Source of the DNA: a candidate division WOR-3 bacterium
GTDB lineage: Bacteria > Hydrothermota > Hydrothermia > LBFQ01
Assembly: GCA_027050205.1 (NCBI GenBank)
Contig: JALUCS010000132.1
Location: 1-64,000 of the forward strand
Direction of reading: 5' to 3'
DNA: 64,000 bases
Shown here: piece by piece, positions 21,354-42,482 of the stretch
How the letters are laid out: the number at the start of each line of letters is the position of its first letter
Position numbering within the stretch: the stretch's first letter is position 1
The notes under the pieces: model-generated
Told to the model about the DNA's origin: nothing
The model's input: only the letters and a program-made list of their open reading frames with translations
Databases searched by the model: none
Program-made: the position numbers and the translations under genes

Positions 21354-21841
21354 TCCCGGAGCCTACGCATCCGCTCCCTCGGAGGTAGGTAGTCTATGTA
21401 TAGAACGCCGTTTATGTGGTCTATCTCGTGTTGCAGGACCCTCGCGTACAGGCCGGTGGCGGTTATCTCAACCGGCACGAGTTCCCCGTCCCTAAGCTCC
21501 AACGCCTTCACTACGGCGAGGTACGGCCTCTTGACGTCAAAGTACAGGCCGGGGAAGGAGAGGCAACCCTCCTCGTCTACGTCCTCCCCCTCGTAATACA
21601 CCACCTCCGGGTTCACGAGGACCTGGGCTTCCCCCTCCCTGCCCGTGAATTCGCCCTTGTAGACGGCTATGACCCTCAAGAGTGAGCCTACCTGGTTGGC
21701 GGACAGACCGAGTCCCTCGTAGGCCAGCATCGTATCCACGAGGTCCTCCGCGAGGTTCAAGACCTCACCGTTGAGATCCTCAACGGGTTTCGCCACCTTC
21801 CGCAGTACGGGATCGGGGTATATCCTAACCTTTCTTACCAT
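21317..21841 (-). CDS. def: Peptide deformylase
   Basis: G.GLSANQVG, EGCLS, QHEIDH.NG motifs. Confidence 0.97.
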   Translation of the reverse strand: MVRKVRIYPDPVLRKVAKPVEDLNGEVLNLAEDLVDTMLAYEGLGLSANQVGSLLRVIAVYKGEFTGREGEAQVLVNPEVVYYEGEDVDEEGCLSFPGLYFDVKRPYLAVVKALELRDGELVPVEITATGLYARVLQHEIDHINGVLYIDYLPPRERMRRLREWKEKRKQKLSV

Positions 21842-26439: not shown

Positions 26440-26500
26440 CCGCCTCCCACCCTCTGCTTCTCCAGTATAATGCCACCCTGCCTTTGAAAAGGAGGAGAAA

Positions 26501-27871
26501 ATGATAGGTCTGCTCGTAGCATCCGGCTTTAGGCTTTCCTTCGGAACGCAGAGCTTCGCCATAGGTGGAGTGAACTACACCCTCGTGGGGGACTACAGCG
26601 CCATATACTGGAACCCCTCCCGCCTCTCGGATCAGCGCAACTCCTTCGGGCTGGACCTCCTGACGATAGCCCCGATGGCGAAGTACAGGATGAACACCAA
26701 CCTTCTGGGGTACGATGGCGGGTACCCCCGTATAAAGGACAACACGGCCTACAGCGAATCCCCACCCTTCCTGATCCCGTCCCTCGGTTTCGTTATGTAT
26801 GGGGAGAGCTTCACGTGGGGGTTCGCTGCCTTCGCCCCCTTCGGTATGGGGACCCGCTGGGACCTGTACGACCCTCCGATAAACTACTACAACTCTTACG
26901 ATAGCACCTGGGAGGCCCCCTCCTATCCGAAGTACGATTGGGAGTCCGACTTCAAGTCCCTGGCCCTGTGGTTCGGCTTCGGTAAGGAGTTGGGTCCCTT
27001 CCGGGTCGGTCTCTCCGCCGGCCCCGTCCTGATGTCCATCCTCGTCAGGAAGGTGACCCTCCTGGACCCCGCCTCCATAGACCCGGAGGCGGCGAGCGCC
27101 CCCATAGAGTACCGCCTCTGGCCCATAGACACCAAACTGAAGGCCTACGGCCTATCCTTCGGTGGGGCCTTCGGCCTTACCTCCTACATCGGGGAGACCT
27201 TCACCTTCGCCCTAACCGGCCACTACTACATCCCCACCCACCTGTACGGCCAGGCCAAGCTCCAACTCTTCACCCCCCGGAACGACTACATAGTGGAGAA
27301 CGCCCCGGACCTCGCGATGCTCTTCAGCGGGTACATCTTTCAGGGGAGCGGTGAGGGGAGTACGAGCCTACCCCTCCCTCCGGACGTTGGCCTCGGTTTC
27401 GCCTTCCGTCCCGTCAAGATGTTCACCGTATCCGTCGGGATGAACTACGTGTTCTGGAACGTCCTTGACGAGATAGTGATGGACTTTGACGACCTGACCC
27501 TCCTGTACCAGCAGATAAAGAGCGACACCCTCCAGTTTCACTGGCACAACGTGATAGAGGTGGGCGTGGGTACGAAGCTTGACGTAACGGACTGGCTGTC
27601 CCTCCGCTTTGGCTTCGCCTACGACCAGTCCCCCGTACCCGACAGCACCTTCACCCCCCTGATCCCGGACGTGGGCAACCGCATAGGGGTCTCCGGAGGC
27701 TTGAGCTGGAGCGTAGGGGACTTCTGGACCTACCACCTCTCCTACACCTACACCCAGACCCCGGAGAGGGAGATCTCCAACGAGGGCTACAGGTACGACG
27801 CCACCTACATGCCCGGAACCTACAGGTTCAAGGGCCACCTCGTAAGCGTCGGCTTGACCTACAGGTGGTAG
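26501..27871 (+). CDS. FadL/OmpP1-type outer-membrane beta-barrel transporter
   Basis: SGF start, A.GG......D.SA.YWNP, APFG, LR.G.AYD.SP, P..PD..R, aromatic C-terminus; SD AGGAGG. Confidence 0.88.
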   Translation: MIGLLVASGFRLSFGTQSFAIGGVNYTLVGDYSAIYWNPSRLSDQRNSFGLDLLTIAPMAKYRMNTNLLGYDGGYPRIKDNTAYSESPPFLIPSLGFVMYGESFTWGFAAFAPFGMGTRWDLYDPPINYYNSYDSTWEAPSYPKYDWESDFKSLALWFGFGKELGPFRVGLSAGPVLMSILVRKVTLLDPASIDPEAASAPIEYRLWPIDTKLKAYGLSFGGAFGLTSYIGETFTFALTGHYYIPTHLYGQAKLQLFTPRNDYIVENAPDLAMLFSGYIFQGSGEGSTSLPLPPDVGLGFAFRPVKMFTVSVGMNYVFWNVLDEIVMDFDDLTLLYQQIKSDTLQFHWHNVIEVGVGTKLDVTDWLSLRFGFAYDQSPVPDSTFTPLIPDVGNRIGVSGGLSWSVGDFWTYHLSYTYTQTPEREISNEGYRYDATYMPGTYRFKGHLVSVGLTYRW

Positions 27872-27889
27872 CAGCCGTAAAATGGGGGC

Positions 27890-29425
27890 GTGCATCTACT
27901 CCTCGCCCTGACGGGGGTTAGGTACCTCTACGCCCCCTTTGACGACCTCAACGGATGGGGGGGCAACGGTTGGAGGGTGGATAGCTCTCTCCCCTATCCC
28001 CCTCCGGGAGACGGAACCTTCGCCGTAAGTGAGGGGGACGGCGGCGTGTCTGATACCCTCATCTCTCCGGCCATCGCCCTTTGGCCATCCCCCGACACCC
28101 TGTGGCTCACCTACTCCTACTCCTTCGCCGCCACCTACACCGGCGATACGGGCAAGGTCTTGGTGAGGTTCCGTTCGGGCAGTTGGGGGGGATGGACGGT
28201 CCTAAGGAGCCTCTCCTCCACCTCCCGTGGCACAGATACGGTCCCCCTCCCCGTTGGTGGGGATAGCCTCCAGGTGGCCTTCACGTACTCGGCTCCGGGA
28301 CCTTCCCTCTACTTCGCCGTAGATGAGGTGTCGGTGGAGGGTGTGGTACGGCTGGGGGTGGATTGGGAGGCTGCCTCCATTCTGACCCCTCCCTACACCT
28401 TCGTGGATAGTGCCGTAATCGTGGGGTACAGGGTCAGGAACAACGGAGAGGCGACGGATACGGCTACGGTTTTCTACGGTGTAGTGGACGGCCCCTCCCA
28501 CAGCACCCCCGTGGTCCTCCCACCCGGAGGGGATACCGTACTGCGGCTACCGGTCTCCTCGTCCGTTCCCGGCTACATCCCCCTGTTCCTGATAGTCTCT
28601 GCCCCGTCCGATACCTTCAACTCTAACGACACCCTCACCCTCCATCTAAGGACCTATCCCAACCCGGAGTACCAACTCCTCGCCAGGTATGCCCCCCCAC
28701 CCCTGATAGACGGCTACGTCCTGTCGGGAACGACCTACCTACCCCCTTGGGACTCCGCTCCGAGGGTACCTGCAGGGGCGTGGTTGGACGGCTCACCTAT
28801 CGGCTCCTGCGTCCTCCTCGCCGCCTCCGATGGCACCTACCTGTACCTCGCCCTGGTCACGTCGGCCGACACCTACTTGGACCCCCTTGACGCCGTACTT
28901 ATGGCCATAGACGACAACGGGGACGGTACCTGGGCCTCGGACTCCTCCGAGGGGTGGAACCTCCTGCGGCCTCCGGCTTGGTACGTTTCCCCCTCACCGG
29001 GGGTGGTACCCTTCTCTTTGAGGGAGGATTTGGGTAGCCGCTTCGCCTTCCACTACGACCCATCCCAGGCCTACAAGGTACAGGTGGAGTGGGCTGTGCG
29101 CTTGGGCGGGGAACCGGACCCGGCCTCCATTCCGGATGACAGGGACACCCTCCGCGCGGCCGTACTGTTTGAGGACGGCGAGGACGGTAAGGTGGTGTGC
29201 CGGTGGCCCCAGACCTCGGATCCCTCCTCTCCCCTCACCTTCGGCTCCATAGTCTTGGAGAGGGGGACGGGCATAGACGAAGTCAGACGTAGGCCCGTAG
29301 GAACGGGGAGATTGAGGGTCTACTCCGTCTCCGGCAGGTACCTGGGAGGAAAGACGGAGGGACTTCCTCCCGGCGTGTATTTCCTGTACGACGGTGTTAG
29401 GGTGCGTAAGTTGGTGGTGCGATGA
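27890..29425 (+). CDS. Secreted beta-rich protein with Ig/CARDB-like and DOMON-like regions and a T9SS-CTD-like tail
   Basis: V.N.G.....V Ig-like stretch; P.IDG....W and LYLA; tail GIDE...VYSVSGR...LPPGVYF...RKLVVR. Confidence 0.65.
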   Translation: MHLLLALTGVRYLYAPFDDLNGWGGNGWRVDSSLPYPPPGDGTFAVSEGDGGVSDTLISPAIALWPSPDTLWLTYSYSFAATYTGDTGKVLVRFRSGSWGGWTVLRSLSSTSRGTDTVPLPVGGDSLQVAFTYSAPGPSLYFAVDEVSVEGVVRLGVDWEAASILTPPYTFVDSAVIVGYRVRNNGEATDTATVFYGVVDGPSHSTPVVLPPGGDTVLRLPVSSSVPGYIPLFLIVSAPSDTFNSNDTLTLHLRTYPNPEYQLLARYAPPPLIDGYVLSGTTYLPPWDSAPRVPAGAWLDGSPIGSCVLLAASDGTYLYLALVTSADTYLDPLDAVLMAIDDNGDGTWASDSSEGWNLLRPPAWYVSPSPGVVPFSLREDLGSRFAFHYDPSQAYKVQVEWAVRLGGEPDPASIPDDRDTLRAAVLFEDGEDGKVVCRWPQTSDPSSPLTFGSIVLERGTGIDEVRRRPVGTGRLRVYSVSGRYLGGKTEGLPPGVYFLYDGVRVRKLVVR

Positions 29426-29427
29426 GT

Positions 29428-31191
29428 TCAGAGGAGGTCCTCCCTCTTTACCTCAACGAGAAAGTTCCGGACCTTCACCTTAACCCTGTCCCCCTCCACC
29501 TTAACCACCTTCCCCTTAACGCCGAGCGACTTTACGAAGTACTCCTCCCCCTCCCTCACCTCCCTCTTAGGTGTCACCTCCTCAAGGATGTCGTAGGCCC
29601 GCCTGACGTCCCTCCTCTCCGACAGGGCCGCCCTTATCTCCCTCAAGGCCCTCCTGACCTCCTCCCTCTCCCTGTCCAACTTCCGGAGTTTCCTCTCGTA
29701 CTCCTCCTTCAACCTGACGATGTAGGACGGTACCTCCTTCAGCAGCTCTTCGGCGTAGGACACGATCTCCGGGGGTAGGAAGGCCCTCGCCGTACGCAGC
29801 CCTCCGCTCTCCCCCACCTTTCCGGGGACGAGTTTGTAGTTCTCTACCGTCGCTACGGTGAAGAACTCGGAGGTTTTGGCGAGGAGCTTGAGGGTGGAGA
29901 AGTGGGTACTCATCAGGATGTGGACCCCCCTGTCGCTGAAGAACTTGGCGACGCTGTAGGCCAGAACGGAGGCCTCGTCGGGGTCTGTGGAGGCGAACAC
30001 CTCGTCAAAGAGGACGACGTCCCCCCCCTCGGCGTTGGCCACTATCTCCTTCAGGTGCTGAAGTTCGCTCGTGAAGTTGGATAGGCCCGCCCTGACGTCC
30101 CCCTCCGCCTCAAACCCCAACATATACACCGAGGCCCCATCCGGGACCTCCACCTCGTCGGCGGGGACGGGGATGCCCATAGAGGCCATAAGGACGGCGA
30201 AGGCCACCGTGCGAAGGGCGACGGTCTTACCCCCGGCGTTCGGGCCGGTTATGAGGAGGGCGAACCTGTCCATCTCCAGATCCAGCGGTACCACCTTCCC
30301 CCTCTTCACCCTGTAGAGGACCGGCTCCCTCGCCCCTAAGAGGCGGAGCCTCCTGCCGAACTTGGGGATGGTGGCCTTGAAATCTACGGCGAAGCGGGCG
30401 CGGGCGAAGAGGCTGTCTAACCTTCCGACGCTCTCGTAAAGTCTCCTTATCAGGTCTATGCTCCGTATGGCCCTTGAAGAGAGGGCCTTGATGACGCGGG
30501 CCTCGTACTCCCTTATCTGGTCCTCCACCTGCACTAAGGCGTTCTGGACGGGTACGACCTCGTAAGGCTCAACGAATATGGTCTCCGTCGTGGCGGAGTA
30601 GCCGTGGACTATGCCGTCAATCTTGTAGTTGGATATGACGGCGAGGGAGAGCCTACCCCCCTTTATGACCGGTTGCCTCTCCCGGAGTTTTTCCTGGTGC
30701 CTCCTTATCAGGTCGGCGTACAGGGCCAGGAGCCTCTCACGGAGCTCGTTCCGTTTCCTTATCAGGTCGGCGAGGGTGGAGTGCCTGTCCGTCCTCACCT
30801 CCCCCGATGGCGATAGGTTCTCCTTGATGTCCCTGGAGAGGCGGAGGAGGTGGGTGGGTACGTTGATGTGGCGGGCGAGCCTGTTGGAGTGTATCCTCTC
30901 CCTCAACTCCAAGACCTTATCCACGAACCGGGCTATCAGGACGAGCTTCTCACCGTTTAGGGTGCCGTACCTCTCAAGGTAGGAGAAGACCTCGGAGACG
31001 TCCGGGATCTGGGGGAAGGAGAGGGACATCCCCCTCTCGTACTCCGAGAGTATGAGGGCAACGTCCGATAGGTCCGCCTTGGCACGGGAGTAGTCGGGCT
31101 TGAGGGAATAGACCGCTCTCTCCCCTACGGCCGTGGAGGAGTATCCGGCTACGAGGTCCAGTATCTCCTTCCGTACCTTCTCCCGCGCCAT
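29428..31191 (-). CDS. mutS2: MutS2-family ATPase, short form lacking the Smr domain
   Basis: GIVHG.S.T..T.FVEP, ITGPNAGGKT, LS.F, LFDE...TDP.E, STH; ends in a KOW-like domain. Confidence 0.85.
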   Translation of the reverse strand: MAREKVRKEILDLVAGYSSTAVGERAVYSLKPDYSRAKADLSDVALILSEYERGMSLSFPQIPDVSEVFSYLERYGTLNGEKLVLIARFVDKVLELRERIHSNRLARHINVPTHLLRLSRDIKENLSPSGEVRTDRHSTLADLIRKRNELRERLLALYADLIRRHQEKLRERQPVIKGGRLSLAVISNYKIDGIVHGYSATTETIFVEPYEVVPVQNALVQVEDQIREYEARVIKALSSRAIRSIDLIRRLYESVGRLDSLFARARFAVDFKATIPKFGRRLRLLGAREPVLYRVKRGKVVPLDLEMDRFALLITGPNAGGKTVALRTVAFAVLMASMGIPVPADEVEVPDGASVYMLGFEAEGDVRAGLSNFTSELQHLKEIVANAEGGDVVLFDEVFASTDPDEASVLAYSVAKFFSDRGVHILMSTHFSTLKLLAKTSEFFTVATVENYKLVPGKVGESGGLRTARAFLPPEIVSYAEELLKEVPSYIVRLKEEYERKLRKLDREREEVRRALREIRAALSERRDVRRAYDILEEVTPKREVREGEEYFVKSLGVKGKVVKVEGDRVKVKVRNFLVEVKREDLL

Positions 31192-31192
31192 C

Positions 31193-31591
31193 CTAACGCC
31201 CTTCGGGGGGGCTGACGAAGACCTTTACGTCCTTTACGACGACGTCCCCCGCCCTCTTGAAGTGCAGGATGAGGGTAAAGGTCTTCCCCTCCGATAGGGT
31301 CTCCTTCAGTCCTATCAGCATAACGTGGTACCCGCCGGGTTTGAACTCCACCTTTCCCTTAGGCGGTACGACTACGAAGGGTACGTGCCTCATCCCCAAC
31401 TTGCCGTTCCCGGCGTCGTAGGTCTCGTGGAGCTCCACCCTCCGGGCGATGTCCTCCTTGACCGACGCACCGTAGAGGGTGTCTGGCCTGTTGGAGTCGT
31501 TCTCTATTACGAAGTAGGCGGCGGAGTTCCCCCCCTTCATTCCGGGCCTCGCCCAGGCGTTGGAAACCGTCAGTCCCAAGAGCAGGAGCAT
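31193..31591 (-). CDS. Copper chaperone PCu(A)C
   Basis: AWAR, SAAYF.I.N, VELHET, M, F.PGGYHVML.GL. Confidence 0.92.
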   Translation of the reverse strand: MLLLLGLTVSNAWARPGMKGGNSAAYFVIENDSNRPDTLYGASVKEDIARRVELHETYDAGNGKLGMRHVPFVVVPPKGKVEFKPGGYHVMLIGLKETLSEGKTFTLILHFKRAGDVVVKDVKVFVSPPEGR

Positions 31592-31602
31592 GCTCCGGTA
31601 TT

Positions 31603-32922
31603 CTAAGGCCGTCCGAAGGGTTTGACCTCCCTGCTTACGAACTCCTCCATCTCCCTCAAGGCCCTCTCAACGATGTAGCGGCGCCTCCTGTCCCGCCTCA
31701 TCTTGGGGACGTCCGGGATTATGCCGAAGTTGGCGTTCATAGGCTGGAAGTACTTGGGGTTGGCCGTGGTTATGTAGTGGAAGAGGGCACCCATCATAGT
31801 GTGCTTAGGGAGGACTAGAGGCTCAAGGCCGAGGGCGAGGCGGGCGGCGTTCAGGCCGGCGAGGTGGCCACCGGCGATGGCGGGGACGTACCCCTCCGTT
31901 CCGGTTATCTGTCCGGCGAAGAGGATCCTCGGCTCCTTCTTGAGCTGTAGGGTTGGAAGCAGGAGCAGCGGAGATTTGATGAAGGTGTTCCTGTGGACGG
32001 CCCCGTACCTCAAGAACTCCGCCCTCTCAAGCCCCGGTATCATACGGAAGACCCTCTTCTGCTCCCCCCACTTGAGCTGGGTCTGGAAGCCCACTAGGTT
32101 CCAAGCCTTCCCCTCCCTGTCCTCCCTCCGGAGCTGGACGACGGCGTAGGGCAGTTTCCCCGTCCTCGGATCCTCAAGGCCCACCGGGCGCAGGGGGCCG
32201 TAAAGGAGGGTCTCCGGACCCCGCCGGGCCATCTCCTCTATGGGCAGGCAGGCCTCAAAGTACTTGGCGTCCTTCTCAAAGTCCTTGGGCGGGTGTATCT
32301 CGGCGTTTATCAGGGCCTCCCAGAACCGCATGTACTCCTCCTTGGTCATAGGGGCGTTGAGGTAGGCCTCGTCCTCGTGGCCGAAGCGGTCCTTGAAGTA
32401 CAGCTTGCTGTAGTCAAGGGTGTCGCCGTCCACTATGGGGGATTGGGCATCGTAGAAGTGCAGGTACTCCTCCCCCAGAAGTTGGCCAATGGCCTCGGAG
32501 AGGGGGTCGCTGGTCAGGGGGCCGGAGGCTATTACCACTATACCGTCCGGTATCTCCTTCACCTCCTCCCTGATGAAACGGATGTTGGGGTGGCCCTCTA
32601 TGGCCTCCTCCACCCTCTTTGAGAAGCAGTTGCGGTCCAGGGCGAGGGCCTTACCTCCGGGCAGGGCGCACTCCTCGGCAAACTTCAGGAGCGGGGAGTT
32701 GAGGAGCCTAAGCTCCTCCTTCAGGAGGCCGGGGGCGGAGTAGGGGTCCTTGGACTTGAAGGTGTTGGAACACACCAACTCGGCGGGTCTGCCCGTTGAG
32801 TGGGCTGGGGTCATCTTCTTCGGCCTCATCTCGTAGAGGTCCACCTGCACGCCCATATCTGCGGCCACGAGGGCGGCCTCGCTCCCGGCCAAACCGGCCC
32901 CTACGACGGTTATCCTCGGCAT
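31603..32922 (-). CDS. trmFO: tRNA (uracil-5-)-methyltransferase TrmFO
   Basis: GAGLAGSEAA, YEMRP...TPAH, ELVCSN, FEACLPIE, VGFQT.LKW.EQ.R, G..HRN, FQPMN.NFG. Confidence 0.97.
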   Translation of the reverse strand: MPRITVVGAGLAGSEAALVAADMGVQVDLYEMRPKKMTPAHSTGRPAELVCSNTFKSKDPYSAPGLLKEELRLLNSPLLKFAEECALPGGKALALDRNCFSKRVEEAIEGHPNIRFIREEVKEIPDGIVVIASGPLTSDPLSEAIGQLLGEEYLHFYDAQSPIVDGDTLDYSKLYFKDRFGHEDEAYLNAPMTKEEYMRFWEALINAEIHPPKDFEKDAKYFEACLPIEEMARRGPETLLYGPLRPVGLEDPRTGKLPYAVVQLRREDREGKAWNLVGFQTQLKWGEQKRVFRMIPGLERAEFLRYGAVHRNTFIKSPLLLLPTLQLKKEPRILFAGQITGTEGYVPAIAGGHLAGLNAARLALGLEPLVLPKHTMMGALFHYITTANPKYFQPMNANFGIIPDVPKMRRDRRRRYIVERALREMEEFVSREVKPFGRP

Positions 32923-32959
32923 TCGCCTTCCAATTCTAAGGCGGGATTCTGCTCTGCCC

Positions 32960-35227
32960 CTACCTCACCACCTTTACCCGCTCCAACTTGCCTCCTACCC
33001 TCACCTTTAGGATATACACACCGCGGGGCAGCCCCTTCAGAGACACATCGTACTCCCCGGCCGGCACGTATCCCAGTACCTCCTCATACGCCTTCCGGCC
33101 CGACGCCGAATACGCCTCTAAGGCCACGTACCCGCTCCTCGCGACCCTTATCCTGACCCCCTCCTCCGTAGGGACGACCGCGGAGACGGTCTCCGTTGGC
33201 CTCTCCTCCACCCCGGTGGCGTTATCAAAGACGGCTACGAAGATATCCACCCCACCGTAGGGGCTTCCGGAGTACCCCTCCCAGGGGAAGTCGGAGACGG
33301 CGTTAGTATCGGCGAAGCCGTAGGCGACGAGGCGACCGTCCGGCAAAAGATCTATATCCGCCACCTCCTGATGCCCCGGCCAGGCGTAATAAGAGGACGC
33401 CCTTATCCGGTCCAGATTCGGATAGAACTTTATCACAAAGCCGTCCTGATCCCCTCCCCAGTCCCTATCGTAGGCCGAAGGGGAGACGGGGAAGTCCTGT
33501 ATATAGCACAGGCCACCGCCTATATAGACGAAGCCGCTCCCATCAACTAAGACCTTAGCGGGCGTCTCGTTGAAGCCGCTGTAGTAGCAGTTCGCCCACT
33601 GGGCGCTGTCCCCACCGAAGAAGGTTGAGGCTTGGATCGCAGAGAGGTCCGGAGAAAGCTTTGCGACGAAGGCGTCTATGCCCCCGTTGAGGGTGTTGTC
33701 GTACCCACCGACTATGGGGAAGTCGGAGGAGTAGGTCGTGAAGGCCACGTAGAGGCTCCCGTCAGGCCCCGAAGCCATAGATACGGGGGCGTTCCAGGTG
33801 TAGCCGTCCGTACGGCTCCCGCCGAGGTACGTACTCGCCAGTATGGTAGAGAGGTCGGAGGAGAACTTCATTACGTATATGTCCGTAAAGCCCCCCGCAA
33901 AGGGCCTTCCACCTATAACGGGGAGGGTATCCACTGTTGTTGTGAAGGCGACGAAGACGTTCCCCGAAGGATCAATCGTCATACCAAAGAACTTCATACC
34001 GTTGGCATCGTCGTTCCTGTAAGTTCCGAAGTAGGTTGAGGCTATCAGACTGCTCAGGTCGTTGCTGAAGATGGCTACGAAACCGTTCGCACTGTCGGGT
34101 GATGGAGGGGTGGATATCGCTCCGCCGACGATATCAAGGAGGGTATCCGACTCGGTTATTCCCATCAGAACTATATTCCCGGATGGGGTTATCGCGAGTT
34201 TGAAAGGCTCCTCGTCCCCTCCGTAGGGGTTGGAGGTACTCCTCCCACCGAAGTAGGTGCCTGCGAGGAGGGTACTTAGGTCCGGACTCAACTTGAGTAT
34301 TACGACGTCCACGCCCACGCCATCACTCTGGACAGAGGTGTCCCTGTACCCGCCCGGAGGGACGGCGAAGTCGTTGTCCGAGAAGGCCACGAAGACGTTT
34401 CCGGAGCTATCAACTGCTATCAGAGGGTAGTAGCAGAAGAATATATTGCAGTCCATCTCCTCGCTTCCGGGGTCCCCTATGTATGTGGCGGAGAGGATCT
34501 GGAGGCTTGAGTTGAGGCGGAGGACGAAGATGTCCCCCCACAGGGTGTCCCCCTGGGTATCGTACCCGGAGGCCGAGCCGAAGTCAAAGTCTCCGCTGTA
34601 GGTGTATCCGACTACGTATATGCTTCCATCCGGCCCTACGGCGAGGGAGTTGTTTCCCATACCCTCATCACGACTCCCACCGAACAGGCGGGCGTAAGGT
34701 ACGGAGCCGAGGTCGGGGTCTATGACCAGAGGTCGGGAGGGATCGTATCCCCTTACATCAAACCGGAGGGTGTTCCCATCCACGACGGGTCGGACCTCAA
34801 CCTCGTCCGTACCCTGATAGGCCCTTATGCCGGAGATGAGGAGACTACCGACCCCTATCCCCTCCTTGGAGACGCTTATGGGTCTGTTGAAGGTTATCTC
34901 AACGTCTTCGGGATTCCCACCGGGACGCACCACGACCTGAAACTCAACCTTACCCCCCTCGGTGGGCGTGAATACGAGGTCAACGTTCTCCCACACGTTG
35001 GCGTACCTGACCTGCCTGTAGGCGGGGAAGACCTCGGAGCCTCCGGAGGTGTGCCTGCTGACGTATCCGCCCGTTGGGAGGAGGCCCTGCGGCTCACCGT
35101 TGGGAAGGAGGAGGACGACGTCCGCCACCCTGACGTACCCCCTGCGGAACTCCAAGCCCTCCGGGAAACTCCGGAGGACGCCACCCACATCGTAGAGGAC
35201 GGGAGTAAGAGCGAACAGCATCAGCAT
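32960..35227 (-). CDS. Secreted SBBP-repeat beta-propeller protein with T9SS-CTD-like tail
   Basis: YD.SRPLVIDP linker; repeated TY.GG....D...G..YV...T.S.DFP / D.FV.K units; tail GVEE...YSASGR...LPRGVYIL...KVVR. Confidence 0.85.
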   Translation of the reverse strand: MLMLFALTPVLYDVGGVLRSFPEGLEFRRGYVRVADVVLLLPNGEPQGLLPTGGYVSRHTSGGSEVFPAYRQVRYANVWENVDLVFTPTEGGKVEFQVVVRPGGNPEDVEITFNRPISVSKEGIGVGSLLISGIRAYQGTDEVEVRPVVDGNTLRFDVRGYDPSRPLVIDPDLGSVPYARLFGGSRDEGMGNNSLAVGPDGSIYVVGYTYSGDFDFGSASGYDTQGDTLWGDIFVLRLNSSLQILSATYIGDPGSEEMDCNIFFCYYPLIAVDSSGNVFVAFSDNDFAVPPGGYRDTSVQSDGVGVDVVILKLSPDLSTLLAGTYFGGRSTSNPYGGDEEPFKLAITPSGNIVLMGITESDTLLDIVGGAISTPPSPDSANGFVAIFSNDLSSLIASTYFGTYRNDDANGMKFFGMTIDPSGNVFVAFTTTVDTLPVIGGRPFAGGFTDIYVMKFSSDLSTILASTYLGGSRTDGYTWNAPVSMASGPDGSLYVAFTTYSSDFPIVGGYDNTLNGGIDAFVAKLSPDLSAIQASTFFGGDSAQWANCYYSGFNETPAKVLVDGSGFVYIGGGLCYIQDFPVSPSAYDRDWGGDQDGFVIKFYPNLDRIRASSYYAWPGHQEVADIDLLPDGRLVAYGFADTNAVSDFPWEGYSGSPYGGVDIFVAVFDNATGVEERPTETVSAVVPTEEGVRIRVARSGYVALEAYSASGRKAYEEVLGYVPAGEYDVSLKGLPRGVYILKVRVGGKLERVKVVR

Positions 35228-35717
35228 AGGAGAGGATTTTAGGTCAGTTTCTGTAGCCGATAAACGTCCTTTGCAGGGGAGCCTGCAAAACTTGACTGCG
35301 AGTATGGATTCCTACCAAACGCTTAGTATTCGGCTGGCGGTCCCTTTCAACGAGGTCGTTGGCCAAGGTGAGCCGCATAGGATGACTTTCAAAATCTGTA
35401 ATGCATATTTTAAGAATCTTAAAGCAAAACTTTTAGTTTATTGAAGTGCAAGTTTAAGTTTTTGAAAGTGCGTTGTTCGGCATCAAGCGGTGGGCAAAGT
35501 ATCCTTCTGGGCATTCAACGTAGAGCGACACAGACTCCGGAGGAGCCATCGGGGTAAGGTTCCCCGTATCGCCGGTCAAAATCACAAACCCGGAGCGTCC
35601 TACATTTTCAGGCGAAAGCACATCTCAAACGTCGGCGTAATGCCGAAATTTTGATGAAAATACGAATAGCCATAAGACCCCGTCCCCGAAACCTCCTCCG
35701 CCTTATAATAACCCATT

Positions 35718-36083
35718 ATGCTGATACTTTTCCTAACGTTCCAAAATCCCGACACCACCTACCGCGACCCTGCCCGCGTGTGCCTCCAAGCCTACGAAGA
35801 TGCAAATAGAACGGTGGATAAGAACAGGTGGCTGGGCGCAGGCGCCCTCGCCCCCCTCATCGGCTCCCCCCTCGGAGGGGTTGTAGCCGTCGCCCTATCC
35901 TACTTTATCACCCCATCCATCCCCCTCTACGCCTTGGAGAAACTCCCCTCCGACTACACCCCCATCTACTCCGCCTGCTACAACACCCGCGCCCGTATCC
36001 TCCAGGTTAAATATACCACCCTCGGTTGCGCCCTCGGCTCCATCCTCCCCCCTCTCCTGTACCTACCCTTTATCCGCTACTGA
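35718..36083 (+). CDS. Hypothetical membrane protein
   Basis: TATAAT 8 nt before ATG; two hydrophobic segments; host codon usage. Confidence 0.7.
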   Translation: MLILFLTFQNPDTTYRDPARVCLQAYEDANRTVDKNRWLGAGALAPLIGSPLGGVVAVALSYFITPSIPLYALEKLPSDYTPIYSACYNTRARILQVKYTTLGCALGSILPPLLYLPFIRY

Positions 36084-36084
36084 A

Positions 36085-36420
36085 TCACTTCTCGCACACG
36101 TAGACCTCGGCCGTCTTGGAGGTGAGGGTGGTGGGGATAAACATATTGGCCAGCATCCCGATGATGACGTCCAGGACGGTGTACTTCACCTCTACCCTGA
36201 CCCTCCTGCCCTTCGGGATTATCTCGTCGGTGGAGGTGTTGCCCAAAGGCACCAGACCGTAGAGGACGTAGAAGTACCTCTTCTCGTTCACCTTGGTGCA
36301 TATAGCAGTGCTGGGAGCGAGACGGGCATCTCCGCTCACCCTGACGGTGGCGCAAGAGGAGGAGAGTATGGCTCCCCCTATTATCCCAGCGAGCAGAATA
36401 CTGCTCAGTCTCTTCCTCAT
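36085..36420 (-). CDS. Bor/Iss-like small lipoprotein (paralog 1)
   Basis: Lipobox-like LSSSC; K..FY.LYGLVPL...ST...D..I motif; SD GGAGG. Confidence 0.75.
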   Translation of the reverse strand: MRKRLSSILLAGIIGGAILSSSCATVRVSGDARLAPSTAICTKVNEKRYFYVLYGLVPLGNTSTDEIIPKGRRVRVEVKYTVLDVIIGMLANMFIPTTLTSKTAEVYVCEK

Positions 36421-36558
36421 CTCTTACCTCCTGTTGGATTGGAATTCTATACCGGTCAAAAGTATAAACGGCTACAAATTCGTGCAATAACTTCGTTGCA
36501 TAGGAATGTGCAACACAACGGGAGGAGATTTACTAATCGTCCTTAAAATATCTACGTT

Positions 36559-36963
36559 ATGTGGAGAAAGGCTCTTTTAGTTGCGAGCGTCCTGTTGCTA
36601 TCCGGATGCGCTACGATGGTATTTGAGGCTCCGAGGGGAAAGGAGCTGTACCTGACGTCGTCCCAAGAGGCGACGAACCGCATATACGAGAGCAAGGTGT
36701 GGTACCTGATAGGGGGCCTGATACCCATAACCGCCAACTCCACCGCCCAGATGCAGCCGGGGATGTTCAGCATGGAGAAGGCCCCGGCTACCTCCATCCT
36801 CGCCGCCTGCCCGGACGGGGGGAAGGTGTACTTCAAGTCCGAGATAGGCGTTATAGACTGGCTGATCACCGTAGTGGCTTCCTCCGTCTTAGGCACCTTC
36901 ACGTGCGGTTGCGGTAGCGTCCTGATCCCCACCATCTATAGCGTAAAGGCATACTGTAAGTAG
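36559..36963 (+). CDS. Bor/Iss-like small lipoprotein (paralog 2)
   Basis: Lipobox LSGC; KVWYL.GGLIP.T.NSTA...D.LI motif; terminal CK. Confidence 0.75.
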   Translation: MWRKALLVASVLLLSGCATMVFEAPRGKELYLTSSQEATNRIYESKVWYLIGGLIPITANSTAQMQPGMFSMEKAPATSILAACPDGGKVYFKSEIGVIDWLITVVASSVLGTFTCGCGSVLIPTIYSVKAYCK

Positions 36964-36973
36964 GAGGTGAGAT

Positions 36974-37291
36974 ATGCGTAAGGTCCTGTTTGCCGGTCTC
37001 CTCGCTCTGCTCTTAGGTGGGTGCGCCACCGTGGTGGTGGATACTCCTCCCGGTAAGGAGGTGAAGCTCGCTCAGGAGGGTACGATGCTGCCCACGGTCG
37101 CCAAGAAGAAGGTCTGGTACGCCCTGTGGGGCCTCATCCCCCTCACCAACAACTCCACGGCCGATATGGTCGCCAGCTGCAATCAGGAGGTCAGGGTGAA
37201 GAGGTACATAGGCGTGGATGACGTCATCATAGGTATCTTCACATCCATAGTCACGATCCGCCCGATTACCGTAGAGGTCCAGTGTAAGTGA
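36974..37291 (+). CDS. Bor/Iss-like small lipoprotein (paralog 3)
   Basis: Lipobox LGGC; KVWYALWGLIPLT.NSTA...D.II motif; SD AGGAGG; terminal CK. Confidence 0.78.
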   Translation: MRKVLFAGLLALLLGGCATVVVDTPPGKEVKLAQEGTMLPTVAKKKVWYALWGLIPLTNNSTADMVASCNQEVRVKRYIGVDDVIIGIFTSIVTIRPITVEVQCK

Positions 37292-37334
37292 TGCGATGGG
37301 GAGGGGGTACCTTTCGGCCTTTTAATACCTACCC

Positions 37335-39059
37335 GTGCGGAGGTACCTCCTCCTCTTCCTATTTTATGCCGTTTTCAGCCTACTGTACGCTGTAGTTGAG
37401 GGTCTCTCCCTCTCCATTCTCCCTGTAATCTTAAGGGTCCTCCTTGGTAGTACGTCAGGAACTTCTCTAATACCGGCCCTCAAGGCCGTCTCTCCCCTTC
37501 AAGGTTGGCTCAAATCTTACGTCCTCCTTGACGACAAGTACGAGGCTCTAAGGAACCTCTCCCTCTTCGTCGCCTCCATCTTCATTAGCAAGATGATAGT
37601 AAATTCGGCCAAGAAGCTCTCCATCCTCGCCCTGATGGAGATGGTGGCCAAGGACCTAAGGGATAGAGCCTTTGCCGCCGTAATGAGGGCGGACGTCTCC
37701 TCCTTGAGGAGGGTCAGGGTGGGGGACCTCGTCTCCCGCCTCACGGGTGAGGTCAATTACATCAAGCTGGCCGTAAGGGACGGCATCGGCAACCTGTTGG
37801 GGGAGGGGTTCAACCTCCTCGTCTTCGCCGGTCTGGCCCTGACCTCCGCCCCCGTCTTGAGCGTCTTCGCCTGGGGCATCCTCCTATCGGCCTCCCTCCT
37901 CGGATGGGCGGTCTCCCGCATCGTAAAGAGGAGGTCGGCCAAAGCCCTCGCCTCCCTGGGGGACTTCTCCGCCTACCTCTCCAAGAGTTTTGAGGGGATA
38001 AAGGTCATAAAGTCCTTAAACGCCGTCGGGGAGGTCCTCAACCGCTTCGCCGAGTACTCAAGGAGGCTCTACCTCCAGTTCGTAAAGTTGGAGTTCTCGG
38101 CCGCCCTCGCCCCCATCCTCTCGGAGACCCTCGTGGGCTTGAGCGCCGCCCTGATCCTCTTCCTCGCCGGATACTTCATATTCAAGGCCAAGGTGGTGGA
38201 GCCGGACGCCTTCATCGTCTTCCTCGCGGCCTCCCTCTCTATGATCCGCCCCCTCAAGCTCATCTTCCAGAGCATAGCCTATATAAACACGGCGAGGTCC
38301 TCCTACGAGAGGTTGAGGGAACTTCTGAACCTACCGGAGGAGAGGTGGGGGAGTCTGGACCCAAGCGACTGGAGGACGTTGGAGCTTCGGAACGTAAAGG
38401 TCAGGTACGACGGGAACCTCGTCCTTGACGTCCCCCACCTGAAGGTTGGGCGGGGGGAGAGGATCGCCGTAATAGGACGATCGGGGGCCGGGAAGAGTAC
38501 CCTCCTTGACGTCCTCGCCGGTTTCGTAAGGCCCGACGAGGGGGAGGTCCTATTGGACGGAAGGAGTCTCTACGAGTACGACCTCTTCAAATGGCGGGAG
38601 GTGGTGGGATACGTACCGCAGGAGGTCTATATCTTTGACGGCACCCTTAAGGAGAACGTCGGGGAGGGGGCGGAGGGGCTTATGGGTAGGCTGAACCTCT
38701 CCCACCTCCTCCGGAGGTTGGACGAGCCGGTCGTAAATCTGAAGGACGCCCTGTCGGGGGGTGAGAGGCAGAGGATAGGGATAGTGCGGGTGCTAAGGCG
38801 GAAGCCCTCCCTCCTACTGATGGACGAACCGACGAGCGCCCTTGACTCGGAGAGCGAAGCCGCCTTGAGGAGACTCCTTGAGGAGATGGAGGGTATAACC
38901 CTGATAGTGGTAGCCCACAAGAGGAGTACCGCCCTATGGGGCAGGAGGGTGTTGGTTATGGAAGGGGGGAGGATCGTATGCGACGGCAACCACGAGGAGT
39001 TGAAACGCACCTGCCCCCGCTACACCGACCTCATGGAGAGGGAAGAATTAACGGGATGA
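37335..39059 (+). CDS. ABC transporter ATP-binding/permease fusion (MsbA-like)
   Basis: N-terminal TM domain; GRSGAGKST, LSGGERQR, LLMDEPTSALD, VAH. Confidence 0.9.
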   Translation: MRRYLLLFLFYAVFSLLYAVVEGLSLSILPVILRVLLGSTSGTSLIPALKAVSPLQGWLKSYVLLDDKYEALRNLSLFVASIFISKMIVNSAKKLSILALMEMVAKDLRDRAFAAVMRADVSSLRRVRVGDLVSRLTGEVNYIKLAVRDGIGNLLGEGFNLLVFAGLALTSAPVLSVFAWGILLSASLLGWAVSRIVKRRSAKALASLGDFSAYLSKSFEGIKVIKSLNAVGEVLNRFAEYSRRLYLQFVKLEFSAALAPILSETLVGLSAALILFLAGYFIFKAKVVEPDAFIVFLAASLSMIRPLKLIFQSIAYINTARSSYERLRELLNLPEERWGSLDPSDWRTLELRNVKVRYDGNLVLDVPHLKVGRGERIAVIGRSGAGKSTLLDVLAGFVRPDEGEVLLDGRSLYEYDLFKWREVVGYVPQEVYIFDGTLKENVGEGAEGLMGRLNLSHLLRRLDEPVVNLKDALSGGERQRIGIVRVLRRKPSLLLMDEPTSALDSESEAALRRLLEEMEGITLIVVAHKRSTALWGRRVLVMEGGRIVCDGNHEELKRTCPRYTDLMEREELTG

Positions 39060-39626
39060 GGCCTTTGCCATCTCAAGGAGGAAACGGTGGAACAGGTCGT
39101 CCCCCGAAAGCTCCGGGTGGAAGGTTAGGGCGAGGACGTTCCCCTGGAGGACACCCACCGGCTCACCGTCGCCGAGGGTGGCGACCACCTCCACACCCTC
39201 TCCCACCTCTACGATCCTAGGCGCCCTTATGAAGACCCCGGTTATCTCCCTCTCCTCTCCGCCGAGCTTCACCCTAACCGGGGCCTCAAAGCTGTCCTTC
39301 TGCCTGCCGTAGGCGTTCCTACGCACCTTGATATTGACCTTGCCCAGCGTCAAGCCGGGGTCGTCGTCTATCACCTCGCTGGCGAGGACTATCAGACCGG
39401 CGCACGTGCCGAGGATGGGCCTGTCCCACCCGCGGAGGGCCTCAACGAAGCCGTACTTCTTCAGGATGCGGGCGAAGTGGGTACTCTCCCCACCGGGGAA
39501 CACCAGGGCATCCACGAGAGTGAGGTCCTCCGGGAGCTTGACGTAGAGGGGTTCGGCCCCTAAGCCCTTAAGGATGGCGGCATGCTCTTCGTAATCACCC
39601 TGAAATCCGAGAACTCCGACCTTCAT
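39048..39626 (-). CDS. pdxT: Pyridoxal 5'-phosphate synthase glutaminase subunit
   Basis: GVL..QG...EH, PGGEST, GTCAGLI, RNAYGRQ.DSF, FIRAP, FHPEL. Confidence 0.96.
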   Translation of the reverse strand: MKVGVLGFQGDYEEHAAILKGLGAEPLYVKLPEDLTLVDALVFPGGESTHFARILKKYGFVEALRGWDRPILGTCAGLIVLASEVIDDDPGLTLGKVNIKVRRNAYGRQKDSFEAPVRVKLGGEEREITGVFIRAPRIVEVGEGVEVVATLGDGEPVGVLQGNVLALTFHPELSGDDLFHRFLLEMAKASSR

Positions 39627-39637
39627 AAAGGGAGAAA

Positions 39638-39711
39638 AGCCCGCGGGCGGACTTGAACCGCCGACCTCGTCCTTACCAAGGACGCGCTCTGACCGCCTGA
39701 GCTACGCGGGC
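39638..39711 (-). tRNA. tRNA-Thr(GGT)
   Basis: Cloverleaf GCCCGCG...CGCGGGC-T; anticodon arm CGTCC-TTGGTAA-GGACG; T-loop TTCAAGT; no encoded CCA. Confidence 0.95.
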
Positions 39712-39716
39712 GTAAG

Positions 39717-39791
39717 TCGGGGCGCCGGGATTTGAACCCGGGACCTCTTCCACCCCAAGGAAGCGCGCTAACCAGGCTGCGCTACGCCCCG
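39717..39791 (-). tRNA. tRNA-Pro(GGG)
   Basis: CGGGGCGTAGCGCAGCCTGG...; anticodon arm CTTCC-TTGGGGT-GGAAG; T-loop TTCAAAT; no encoded CCA. Confidence 0.95.
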
Positions 39792-39804
39792 ACGGAGGTG
39801 GATA

Positions 39805-40668
39805 TTATAACGGTGAATGGGATGCGGATGGGAGCCTAACGGGTACCACCAACACCGTCTGGGAGACAGCGGCGAAGAAACCCTCCGCACCGTTGAGGTT
39901 CCCCTGATCCATCACCCCCCACCTGTACCTGTCCTCGTTCAAGGCCCAGACCTTGACGGCGTAGTTCCCGCTCCCCCACGCGAAGGCGGGCGCCTCGTAG
40001 AAGGCGAAGGGTGGAAAGGCCCTTAGGCTGTCGGGTACCCCCGGAACGAGGCTGGAGTCGGGTAGGGAGAGGAAGAGGTAGCGGGGGGGACGGAAGAGGG
40101 TGATGCTGTCCCGCTTGTCGTAGTTGTAGATGAAGGCGTAGTAGAAGGCGGCCCCTTCAACGGCCATCCATACGGCGAGGGTGAGCGTATCCTCCGGGAG
40201 CCTGACCGTATCCCCCGGCCCGATGATGGAGAAGGAGGAGTCGGAGGGGTTGAACCTGACCAGCATAACGGGGAAGGTGTCGGGCGTGGTGGTCGTACCC
40301 TCGGCCGTGTCCCCCTCGTAGGAGACGGTTATGCGGTAGGTAGTGAGGGGCCTGGGGGAGAAGTGGGCTACGTGGAGCCAGACGCTGTCCTCCTTGAGCG
40401 TGGTATCCCCGAAGTTCAGGACCCTGATGGTCGTAAATACGGGGGAGAAGGTGTAGGTGCTGTCTCCGTCCGAAACCACGACCTTGGCATCCTTTAAGCC
40501 TCTACCCCTCGGCTCCTCCGGACTGCGGGGCCTATCCACGAAGACGTACTGGACGGTATCGCCAACGACGAGCATAGCGCTGACGTAGAGGGGGGGAACG
40601 GAGGGGGGCGGGGTAGCCTCCTCGCACCCCACCCCCAGTAGTACCGTCAAGGATAAGAGTCGCCTCAC
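39805..40668 (-). CDS. Lipoprotein, DUF4249-like
   Basis: MRR...LGVGC lipoprotein signal; LYV.A.L..G, A.V.V.DG, Y.I.V...G....G.TT.P and N..G..G.F patterns. Confidence 0.6.
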   Translation of the reverse strand: MRRLLSLTVLLGVGCEEATPPPSVPPLYVSAMLVVGDTVQYVFVDRPRSPEEPRGRGLKDAKVVVSDGDSTYTFSPVFTTIRVLNFGDTTLKEDSVWLHVAHFSPRPLTTYRITVSYEGDTAEGTTTTPDTFPVMLVRFNPSDSSFSIIGPGDTVRLPEDTLTLAVWMAVEGAAFYYAFIYNYDKRDSITLFRPPRYLFLSLPDSSLVPGVPDSLRAFPPFAFYEAPAFAWGSGNYAVKVWALNEDRYRWGVMDQGNLNGAEGFFAAVSQTVLVVPVRLPSASHSPL

Positions 40669-42482
40669 CTCTTGACTACCTTGAAGACCCTTCCGTCAAG
40701 CTTGATGAAGTAGACCCCCTTCGGGTAGGAGGTCAGGACGACCCTGTCCACCCTGCCGTGGAAGAGACGACGGCCCGTCTTATCGTAGACGGAGACCTCC
40801 CTCGGCGAGCCGAGGTCTATGACACCGTTGCGGTTGACGAAGAGGGCGCCCCTCTGGCCCCTCTCGTTGGCACCCGTGTACTGGAGGCTGGCCCCGACGA
40901 TGTAGAAGGCGAAGTCCGTAGCGTAGTTGTCCCTGTAAAGGCCCCAGGTACTGCCGTTGGTGGACTCAAAGGTCTGGAGGGAGAAGGGGTGGGTGGTATC
41001 CACGATGACGGAGGGACCGAGGCTGTCCGTCTGGAGGAAGGCCAGGAGGACGGGGCCGTTTACCGTTGCCCCCACGGGGAGGGGTATGATATAGGCCGTG
41101 TCGGGGTTGACGGTGACGTTCCACACGGCCAGGGTGTCCCCCACCTCTCCGAGGCTGCTGCCCTCGGTGGCGAGGAAGACGGGTGCGGTTATGGAGGAGC
41201 ATCCGGGTTCGGTGGAGGCGCACCCCGCCATCATAACTACGGCCGTGTCTATCCTGTAGGGGTAGTATCCGAAGTCAAACCGCACCATCCAGCCTCCCCC
41301 GGCGCTAAGCCAACGGGTGGAGAGGGGAGCGGCCATAACGGCGGTCAGGTCTATCCAACCTACGGTATCCTCGGCGGTCCAGTCTATGAGCCGTATCTCT
41401 ATCTTGGAGGTATCGTCGGCGTGGTAGAGGTCGGCATCGTTGCTGACGCGGAGGAAGGCGGTGTAGTAGTCCTTGGGGAAGGTGGAGAAGTCTATGTTGG
41501 AGAAGGAGACGGAGGCGTAGGATGAGGGGGGTATCTCCGGGACAGTGACGGTGTCGCTGTAGAGGATCAGGCCGTTGTACTTGCGGCGGATGGTCAGGAT
41601 GGCCTGGGTGTTGTACAGGGTGTCCGTCCCAGCGTTCACGACGTTAGCGACCGGAGTGAAGTTGGTTTCCCTGTCGCGAGCGATCACGACGCCGGAGTTC
41701 TCAAGGCCGGAGACCCTGTCGGGGAAGATGGCCCCACCCCTGGCGTCGGAGACGTGGAAGCTGGAGGAGTCGGGACGGTATATCCGTATGGCGAAGCTGT
41801 CCCTCGGCTCCCTTGAGGAGGGGGTGCCGTCCTCAAATATGCCCATACCGGGGTTGCCGAGTTCGGACTCCAGACCTATGGATATGGCGGGGCTACCTAT
41901 ACCGTAGTCGTAGCCGCCGGACTGGGGGCCGTAGTTGATGGTGATGGTACCGTCGGCCGTCAGGATGATCTGGAAGGTGTGGGAACCGTTGCAACCGCTC
42001 GCGTTGTTCCACCACGTAGCGACGTTCTCAAAGGTCACTACGAGGGAGTCCGTGCCGTTGCTCCAGTAGTATATGTCGCCCCCCGTACATTCGGGGTTGA
42101 GGTCCGCCCCAAGGCCCACGATGAGGTCGTTGGGTTGGGCGGGGTTGGGTACGCTGTTGCCATGGGGTACCCAGAAGTTGCCGCCATTGAACCCTATTGC
42201 CCCGTTGGAATGGATGTAGAACTGGCTAACCGTGTACCAGTAGAAGGGGAAGTCAAAGCCGATGTCAAAGGGTCCCCTTATGTCGTCGTCGGAGAGGGTT
42301 AGATGGACGGTGGAGGGGTCGGAGGACTTGTCCACCCAGACGTAGTCGGGTGCCAGCGACGAGGTGTCGTCGGACGTAACGGCAACGTAGCCGTACGGGT
42401 CCGTTATCACGTCCAGAGGCCTTATCTCGTAGGCCGTCTGGCTCCTTACACTGAAGTACGGAATTGCTGCGATCAGAAACAT
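40665..42482 (-). CDS. Secreted protein with nidogen-like/Ig-like regions and T9SS-CTD-like tail
   Basis: DPYGY, W.D, DD...GPF.IGF.FPFY, SNG.I.F, DL.P, TFQ.IL..DG.I...Y; tail VYDKTGR...PKGVYF...KVVKR. Confidence 0.75.
   Translation of the reverse strand: MFLIAAIPYFSVRSQTAYEIRPLDVITDPYGYVAVTSDDTSSLAPDYVWVDKSSDPSTVHLTLSDDDIRGPFDIGFDFPFYWYTVSQFYIHSNGAIGFNGGNFWVPHGNSVPNPAQPNDLIVGLGADLNPECTGGDIYYWSNGTDSLVVTFENVATWWNNASGCNGSHTFQIILTADGTITINYGPQSGGYDYGIGSPAISIGLESELGNPGMGIFEDGTPSSREPRDSFAIRIYRPDSSSFHVSDARGGAIFPDRVSGLENSGVVIARDRETNFTPVANVVNAGTDTLYNTQAILTIRRKYNGLILYSDTVTVPEIPPSSYASVSFSNIDFSTFPKDYYTAFLRVSNDADLYHADDTSKIEIRLIDWTAEDTVGWIDLTAVMAAPLSTRWLSAGGGWMVRFDFGYYPYRIDTAVVMMAGCASTEPGCSSITAPVFLATEGSSLGEVGDTLAVWNVTVNPDTAYIIPLPVGATVNGPVLLAFLQTDSLGPSVIVDTTHPFSLQTFESTNGSTWGLYRDNYATDFAFYIVGASLQYTGANERGQRGALFVNRNGVIDLGSPREVSVYDKTGRRLFHGRVDRVVLTSYPKGVYFIKLDGRVFKVVKR

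Follow-up and report, generated by a model that had tools for sequence, protein, structure and literature searches.

Very short hydrophobic N-termini as probable minimal Sec signals in a candidate division WOR-3 bacterium

Introduction

How little of a signal peptide is enough to take a protein across the inner membrane? This old question, the minimal task of a signal peptide, is raised by a 64,000-nucleotide stretch of DNA from a candidate division WOR-3 bacterium (class Hydrothermia, order LBFQ01), hereafter the window, which forms the first 64 kb of contig JALUCS010000132.1 (C132) of GenBank assembly GCA_027050205.1 (2.05 Mb, 93.5% complete). A preliminary description of the window had pointed to six genes whose products, thought to be exported, begin with only six to eight hydrophobic residues. 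Classical signals for Sec export and signal peptidase I (SPase I), in contrast, have an n-, an h- and a c-region (PMC9360617; this source, as well as PMC5837995, PMC11494458, PMC5454389, PMC9099147 and PMC4758666, is cited here from excerpts). We use the term stub for an N-terminus made of Met and about 5–7 uncharged hydrophobic residues, usually ending in Ser, Ala, Gly or Thr. The comparisons reported here, which are based on sequence, suggest that stubs are probably minimal Sec signals that replace ordinary signal peptides and are cut by the ordinary signal peptidase, LepB.

Starts of the six genes

All six N-termini are present at the coordinates given in the preliminary description (Table 1), and the observation of short N-termini at these genes is confirmed. 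The frame upstream of each start is open for 10 codons in the FadL-family gene, 3 in the gene starting at 27890, 25 in that of PCuAC, 28 in that starting at 35227, 2 in that at 35718 and 4 in that at 42482; these open stretches contain neither ATG, GTG or TTG codons nor a hydrophobic run, and the only non-standard candidates are an ATA 26 codons upstream of 35227 and an ATT one codon upstream of 35718. Longer leaders initiated at non-canonical codons, which the preliminary description had allowed for, were sought at the six genes and none was plausible. As it had also stated, the FadL-family start lies 10 codons downstream of an in-frame TAA (26468–26470) and 5 nucleotides after an AGGAGG, whereas each of the other five has a TANNNT box 6–9 nucleotides ahead of it, in keeping with the −10 box proposed for them. 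The basic n-region is indeed missing: Lys and Arg are absent from the six stubs, and none is found in frame upstream. The neighboring lipoprotein-like proteins, in contrast, carry normal signals that contain Arg or Lys and comprise 14–22 residues up to the Cys.

The assignment of the products to exported families stood for FadL and PCuAC, both recognized by Pfam, and did not for the product of the gene at 35718, which has no match in Pfam or NCBIfam and whose export is putative. The C-terminal domains encoded by the genes at 27890 and 42482 were matched by a genome-built profile only, and the TIGR04183 match of the protein encoded at 35227 is below the cut-off. Alignments of the FadL-family protein to solved structures begin at residue 19, short of the putative mature start.

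A generic sigma-70 scan gave 5 sites against 4.1 expected and, because it requires a −35 box, is uninformative here. Across 623 genes with the first ATG near an upstream stop, TANNNT boxes (259 occurrences) concentrate 6–9 nucleotides before the start, with peaks at 6 and at 8–9 nucleotides, and this spacing suggests that nearly leaderless mRNAs are common in the genome. Examples of such boxes in the window are found at 27878–27883 and 35704–35709.

Stubs across the genome

All genome-wide counts rest on 1852 genes called with a self-trained model. A profile built from the C-terminal domains of the window matched 121 genes of the genome and, because PorV-family genes and SprA are also present, these were taken to code for type IX secretion system (T9SS)-type cargo. 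With starts picked from the DNA alone, stub-type starts were found in 75 of the 121 cargo genes and, among the 1722 remaining genes, in 192 (odds ratio 13, p 1.6e-36). Conversely, with starts picked from the protein pattern alone, a −10 box or a Shine–Dalgarno sequence was present at 55 of 64, compared with 60 of 661 internal ATGs. A combined rule assigns a stub to 97 of the 121 cargo proteins and a canonical signal to 19, leaving 3 in neither class and 2 cut by contig ends; of 729 internal ATGs, 36 also satisfy the stub criterion. Because several potential starts are considered for each gene under this rule, the two blind counts are safer. An in-frame stop lies at most 10 codons upstream in 40 of the 75 stub-type cargo genes. 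Stubs are thus found genome-wide, on far more proteins than the initial six, which supports the earlier claim that a minimal hydrophobic N-terminus is used instead of a normal signal in this lineage.

Another 213 genes outside the cargo set are stub-like, some of which are cytoplasmic false positives; 20 were picked for inspection with Pfam, and 5 of these had no match. Stubs are present on BamA and both other Omp85 proteins, on SurA, Skp, LptD and an LptA/LptD-N protein, on two TolC-like proteins, a DsbA-like and a TlpA-like protein, a TonB-type receptor and an M23 peptidase, as well as on the PorV family, SprA, a CxxCH c-type cytochrome and YajC. Across the genome, stubs keep to families of the envelope and to secreted ones.

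Stubs do not resemble other types of N-terminal signal. The 90 lipoprotein-like signals counted in the genome are 12–33 residues long, and a lipobox-like Cys occurs in only 3 stub-type proteins genome-wide. Stubs are devoid of Arg and hence of a twin-arginine motif (the genome codes for a single protein of this type); unlike in prepilins, nothing basic precedes the hydrophobic run, which is itself short; and the run does not reach the about 18–20 hydrophobic residues of a signal anchor or N-out helix. The three proteins with a lipobox-like Cys, located at positions 9–13 (C83:39133–39912, minus strand; C95:3502–4839, minus; C104:2599–3090, plus), are possibly lipoproteins with very short signals.

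The T9SS-type C-terminal domains are short and end in hydrophobic residues and Arg; they are found in about 6.5% of the genes and, where tested, mostly score below the TIGR04183 cut-off. Several sets of near-identical stub proteins of 120–270 residues, without an assigned family, are encoded in multiple scattered copies, often in pairs, on contigs C126, C109, C101, C114, C82, C65 and C91.

Length of the stub and evidence for its probable removal

Four solved structures align with PCuAC from residue 7 onwards, and the first strand of its AlphaFold model (mean predicted local distance difference test score, 93) comprises residues 7–14; the fold thus fixes the leader at six residues, which cannot accommodate a membrane-spanning h-region. 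A six-residue stub is common to 4 of the 5 closest homologs, while 94 more distant homologs have at least 21 residues ahead of a motif found at offset 11 here. In stubs generally, hydrophobicity is down to background by position 7–8. No Lys or Arg precedes the hydrophobic run in the 97 of 121 cargo proteins with a stub, and these residues are also scarce just downstream of it (18 of 375 residues).

Gln marks the products of SPase I in Bacteroidetes, where its cyclization can be spontaneous (PMC5837995). A Gln is present at positions 7–10 of 56 of the 267 stub-class proteins and of 22 of 476 controls (p 1e-11), in 46 cases following Ser, Ala, Gly or Thr; among canonical cargo signals, 9 of the 15 listed end before a Gln. 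Considering all 57 Gln-marked sites, the residue at −1 is small (Ser, Ala, Gly or Thr) in 46, as expected for SPase I, whereas that at −3 is not, being Leu or Phe in 40. Leu at −3 is also found in the canonical signals of the genome, but position −1 differs, being mostly Ser in stubs and Ala or Gly in canonical signals. Moreover, of the 14 stub proteins that have a canonical paralog, 12, including the CxxCH cytochrome, align with it at an offset of 9–17 residues; stub and long signal would thus give way to the mature protein at an identical point, often ahead of a shared Gln. For soluble proteins, the Gln after Ser or Ala and the register of the paralogs make the uncleaved, formyl-Met-capped signal considered in the preliminary description less likely than cleavage.

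Proposed mechanism and the case for an uncleaved stub

How could such a short sequence function as a signal? As the signal recognition particle (SRP; see below) is absent, targeting would be carried out by SecA. A peptide of 6–7 residues measures about 10 Å as a helix and under 25 Å when extended, against about 30 Å for the bilayer. The stub is therefore too short to span the membrane, and the classical N-in hairpin is excluded on geometry. Rather, it would go in head-first, in the manner of N-out tails, and probably lodge at the periplasmic face, where the Leu-x-Ser/Ala sequence would be presented to LepB, with the stub behaving as an isolated c-region. Head-first entry is known for N-out helices (PMC9099147). 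That Lgt and LspA require a helix spanning the membrane may explain why lipoproteins have retained long signals. Head-first entry would be helped by a kept formyl-Met, and N-out proteins of E. coli tend to retain it, protected from deformylase via SRP (PMC5454389); as that protection needs SRP, absent here, formyl retention in this bacterium is hypothetical. A bolder formulation sees in the stubs of WOR-3 bacteria an export signal of a class of its own: a hydrophobic hexapeptide, capped by formyl-Met, would enter SecY head-first, never span the membrane and be removed in the periplasm, having arisen from leaders of N-out membrane proteins and taken over most of the secretome in one SRP-less order. 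We put this forward tentatively, and consider it somewhat more likely to be wrong than right.

Several observations weigh against stubs being minimal signals cut by LepB. We infer export and cleavage from sequence and structure comparison, and by E. coli genetics the h-region is essential (PMC9360617). No secA match is found in this assembly. Absence of SecA as a real loss was rejected in favor of an assembly gap, because 264 of 272 genomes of the phylum have a SecA-domain match; in the 30 genomes sampled the protein has its full length, and 3 of 6 congeners gave a match at E below 1e-100. LepB, SecY and SecA show no change that tracks the stub trait. Two of the 14 paralog sets are out of register, and 211 of the 267 stub-class proteins, a class that includes cytoplasmic false positives, have no Gln at positions 7–10, so that most cleavage sites are guesses. 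Searches of the genome for a glutaminyl cyclase of the PF05096 type, and a scan for the M28 motif, found none. Lastly, when YajC was examined in 20 genomes (33 were drawn from another phylum, that of one Ignavibacteria-like genome), 17 had a leader of 7–12 residues without Lys or Arg; in many cases Phe or Met precedes an Ala-Pro-Pro sequence there. This arrangement looks uncleavable, and leaders of this kind are probably functional even when they are not removed.

These YajC leaders also speak for a different view, in which the stub drives or accompanies Sec export but is never cleaved, persisting as a formyl-Met-capped tail that serves as a weak anchor or is simply tolerated. The lack of a Gln mark on most stubs, their being too short for a classical hairpin, and the tendency of N-out proteins of E. 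coli to keep formyl-Met (PMC5454389) would all be accommodated. Yet a Gln after a small residue, in register with canonical paralogs, is most readily understood as the N-terminus generated by cleavage; neither T9SS cargo nor the barrels of the outer membrane can stay in the inner membrane; and the deformylase gene (def) is intact while the protection described in E. coli depends on the missing SRP. We consider a permanently retained stub unlikely.

Sec machinery

Motif scans identified SecY, SecD, SecG, LspA and Lgt; YidC, YajC and def are also present, together with an fmt-like gene whose match is below the cut-off. As expected for Sec/SPase I signals, the genome thus combines Sec-exported substrate families with the corresponding machinery. 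The preliminary description had thought that altered recognition by SecA, SecY or the signal peptidase was implied, and inspection of these proteins has so far not borne this out. LepB is ordinary and is the single S26 peptidase of the genome (as in 22 of 25 relatives), so that a second or odd signal peptidase was rejected. Nor was a prl-like pore ring found in SecY, in which I86, I191, I278, I408 and F67 are conserved.

The differences that were noticed follow the class. SecY S405R (E. coli numbering) is found in all 13 genomes sampled from the class and in none of 17 readable others; it lies in transmembrane segment (TM) 10 and adjoins two prl sites, L407 and I408 (PMC11494458). SecA lacks the zinc-binding C-terminal tail in 10 of 12 genomes of the class, compared with 2 of 18 others, and the two class families that keep it are those with longer BamA leaders. 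Both differences track the class and not the stub trait, and are leads only. SecY I187A is found in the order of this bacterium, but Ala, Thr or Met at this position also occur in families with a canonical BamA; Leu-Asp/Glu at 196–197 of TM5 is shared by several other families besides those of the class. Within the bacterium's own family the cytoplasmic loop of SecY around R256 is without its basic residues (L015, C95:12982–14322).

Could the stub instead be read by a dedicated, unrecognized targeting factor or peptidase, acting in parallel to the canonical Sec/LepB route? Two sharply distinct classes of signal coexist in the genome, with different preferences at −1 as described above, and in a class without SRP another route must serve the membrane proteins. 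Still, with one S26 peptidase here and in most relatives, with leader lengths that are continuous across families (6–14 residues), and with no conserved neighbor of lepB seen (the factor itself was not sought systematically), we find this proposal quite improbable.

Absence of SRP and its relation to stubs

Ffh and FtsY were not found in this genome, for which all 33 candidates were scored. In a survey of relatives (14 candidates scored per genome, threshold 1e-25), Ffh or FtsY was found in none of 50 other class genomes that are 88% complete or more, and in 144 of the 206 genomes searched overall. SRP RNA was not found either, in a weak search that also gave no match for 2 of 14 controls. A second SRP-less group of WOR-3 lies outside the class; in 3 of 3 genomes tested, its lone SRP54-like match is FlhF. 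Considering as SRP-less the whole class and families f37–f43, f16 and f24, we conclude from the gene content that SRP appears to have been lost at least twice in one phylum, with SecA kept.

Are stubs then a direct consequence of the loss of SRP? They are most frequent in this class, in which no genome of the survey retains Ffh or FtsY. BamA starts, read by eye at 59 loci, tell a different story. Within the class, all 20 readable leaders have at most 14 residues, and 7–8 in the bacterium's own order (2 loci were in the wrong frame). However, 17 of 26 readable leaders from SRP-bearing families are also free of Lys and Arg and have 6–12 residues (8 are canonical, 1 is ambiguous and 3 more were unreadable), whereas the SRP-less families that lie outside the class have canonical leaders at all 7 readable loci (1 was unreadable). 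On a SecA tree of 30 genomes (FastTree, with weak deep support), the families with short BamA leaders occupy two positions, and the two groups without SRP stand apart from each other. Similarly, cargo starts free of Lys and Arg, which number 13 of 89 in 200-kb samples from ten relatives (11 once two mis-picks are removed), are about as frequent in SRP-less samples (7 of 45) as in SRP-bearing ones (6 of 44, or 4 without the two mis-picks). SRP loss as the sole cause is largely refuted by the BamA leaders and the cargo starts, and we see very little chance of a direct causal link. Finally, that the stubs are an annotation artefact, the true starts lying upstream or the proteins being cytoplasmic, is hardly credible even though the starts are predicted, given the nearby in-frame stops and the start signals counted above, the conservation of stubs, but not of the upstream frames, between species, and the inability of BamA, LptD and SprA to function as cytoplasmic proteins.

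Distribution and possible origin

The stub trait is a minority across the phylum (about 11 of 89 cargo proteins) that has turned dominant in this lineage; dominance was established proteome-wide only for this genome and is suggested for its order by BamA, PCuAC and YajC. A 95-kb sample at the level of the order contained no informative exported orthologs. The stub of YajC is kept in 4 of 7 homologs, the other 3 being called from the next Met. In a wider comparison, based on the 19 of 29 YajC loci recovered with a motif, the protein of some WOR-3 families begins with a stub, that of others with a complete canonical signal or without any leader, and the Gln is the same. In Ignavibacteria-like genomes the YajC leader is short and uncharged while BamA signals are canonical (10 of 10), and the PCuAC leaders there have 12–14 residues, often ending in Phe/Leu-Gln (loci L277–L302). 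Leaders would therefore form a continuum across lineages, with this genome at its extreme. In addition, PntB has, relative to solved PntB chains, about 16 extra N-terminal residues with a stub before the first helix, and stubs precede N-out helices in two antiporter-like proteins, identified by eye. From these comparisons, short uncharged leaders aiding N-out membrane proteins are the probable source of the stub, which would then have been generalized to most cargo in the order.

Comparison with known systems

Stubs share with Sec/SPase I signals an N-terminal location, hydrophobicity, presence on Sec-dependent families, a small residue at −1 and the ability to be exchanged for a canonical signal at the same mature start. 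They differ in having no basic n-region, only 5–7 hydrophobic residues in a total of 6–9, and mostly Leu or Phe at −3. Failing on the n-region, on a membrane-spanning h-region and on a small −3 residue, the stub is, by its sequence, best classed as a variant of the Sec/SPase I signal and not a plain member. As with the SPase I substrates that follow the Q-rule of Bacteroidetes (PMC5837995), Gln is enriched directly behind the predicted cleavage site in both types of signal, and T9SS cargo, the PorV family and SprA are present; however, the Bacteroidetes signals are tripartite, whereas here Gln is found on about a fifth of the stub class and the cyclase was not found. Export with a minimal signal also brings to mind the prl and plug-deletion translocons of E. 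coli, through which proteins whose signal is defective or absent can be exported (PMC11494458), and S405R, beside L407 and I408, is class-wide. Yet the pore ring is intact, and S405R is absent from the short-BamA families outside the class.

As in the N-out, head-on mode of insertion (PMC5454389, PMC9099147), an uncharged N-terminus would lead, and stubs are found before the N-out helices of YajC, PntB and the two antiporter-like proteins. The cases known from those sources, in contrast, are full TM helices guided by SRP, and the stub is a third as long in a bacterium where SRP is absent.

In yeast, the mitochondrially encoded proteins Cox2 and Atp6 have short leaders, which Imp1 and Atp23 remove on the trans side. 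The parallel includes a system free of SRP, head-first export and removal on the far side, but it concerns a few organelle membrane subunits and Oxa1, whereas here a large share of the secretome would depend on SecA and SecY.

The absence of Ffh and FtsY, and of a detectable SRP RNA, is shared with Leptospira, Dehalococcoides and SAR86, for which loss of SRP is known (PMC4758666). The excerpt of that source does not name WOR-3 or report shortened signals in those bacteria, and the loss in WOR-3 involves at least two groups. In the literature searched, whose coverage left out most subscription papers and supplements, we found no description of such signals or of SRP loss in WOR-3. New here are the separation of the trait from SRP loss, its frequency as a phylum-wide minority, the structural limit of six residues and the link to N-out leaders.

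Paralogs of one genome with normal or six-to-seven-residue signals are natural matched pairs in which the roles of the n-region, the h-region, formyl-Met and orientation are testable, and a cultured member of WOR-3, strain sy37, exists (PMC12285271). In a class without SRP, the essential BamA, LptD and SurA carry a stub; if the hexapeptide reading were true, the n-region, a membrane-spanning h-region and SRP would all be dispensable for building a diderm envelope. Stubs are likely missed by signal predictors and by gene callers (3 of 7 YajC records are called from a downstream Met), and WOR-3 secretomes are thus probably under-counted.

Other features of the window

The stubs of the window and the genes used for comparison are listed in Table 1.

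Table 1. Stub-bearing genes, internal controls and related genes of the window
Feature	Position	Strand	Gene	Evidence and remarks
FadL-family outer-membrane transporter, stub of 7 residues	26501..26521	+	26501-27871	PF03349, E 3e-27
T9SS-type cargo, stub of about 7 residues	27890..27910	+	27890-29425	GTG start; C-terminal domain profile; TAAAAT 6 nucleotides upstream; stop 3 codons upstream
PCu(A)C periplasmic copper chaperone, stub of 6 residues	31574..31591	-	31193-31591	PF04314
SBBP-repeat T9SS-type cargo, stub of about 7 residues	35207..35227	-	32960-35227	TAAAAT 8 nucleotides upstream
121-residue protein without family, stub-like N-terminus and later hydrophobic segment	35718..35738	+	35718-36083	TATAAT 8 nucleotides upstream; stop 2 codons upstream
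T9SS-type cargo, stub of about 7 residues	42462..42482	-	40665-42482	C-terminal domain profile; TAGAAT 9 nucleotides upstream; stop 4 codons upstream
YajC, stub of 7 residues then Gln-Gln, before N-out helix	22128..22148	-	21825-22148	TIGR00739; TAGAAT 9 nucleotides upstream; stop 2 codons upstream
Peptide deformylase (def), motifs intact	21317..21841	-		TIGR00079, above cut-off
Three small lipoprotein-like genes, ordinary signals with Arg/Lys (internal control)	36085-36420; 36559-36963; 36974-37291	-; +; +		Weak Bor/LIC_13076-like matches
DUF4249 lipoprotein-like, ordinary 14-residue signal (internal control)	39805..40668	-		Library match

Elsewhere in the window, putative CRISPR-associated genes with Cas3-, Cas7-, Cas5- and Cas6-like starts were noticed by eye at 11700–17800, and about 7 kb (49500–56700) are without called genes. 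Three adjacent paralogs of about 185 residues each, which by eye resemble the Uma2-type endonuclease fold, are encoded at 61538–63196.

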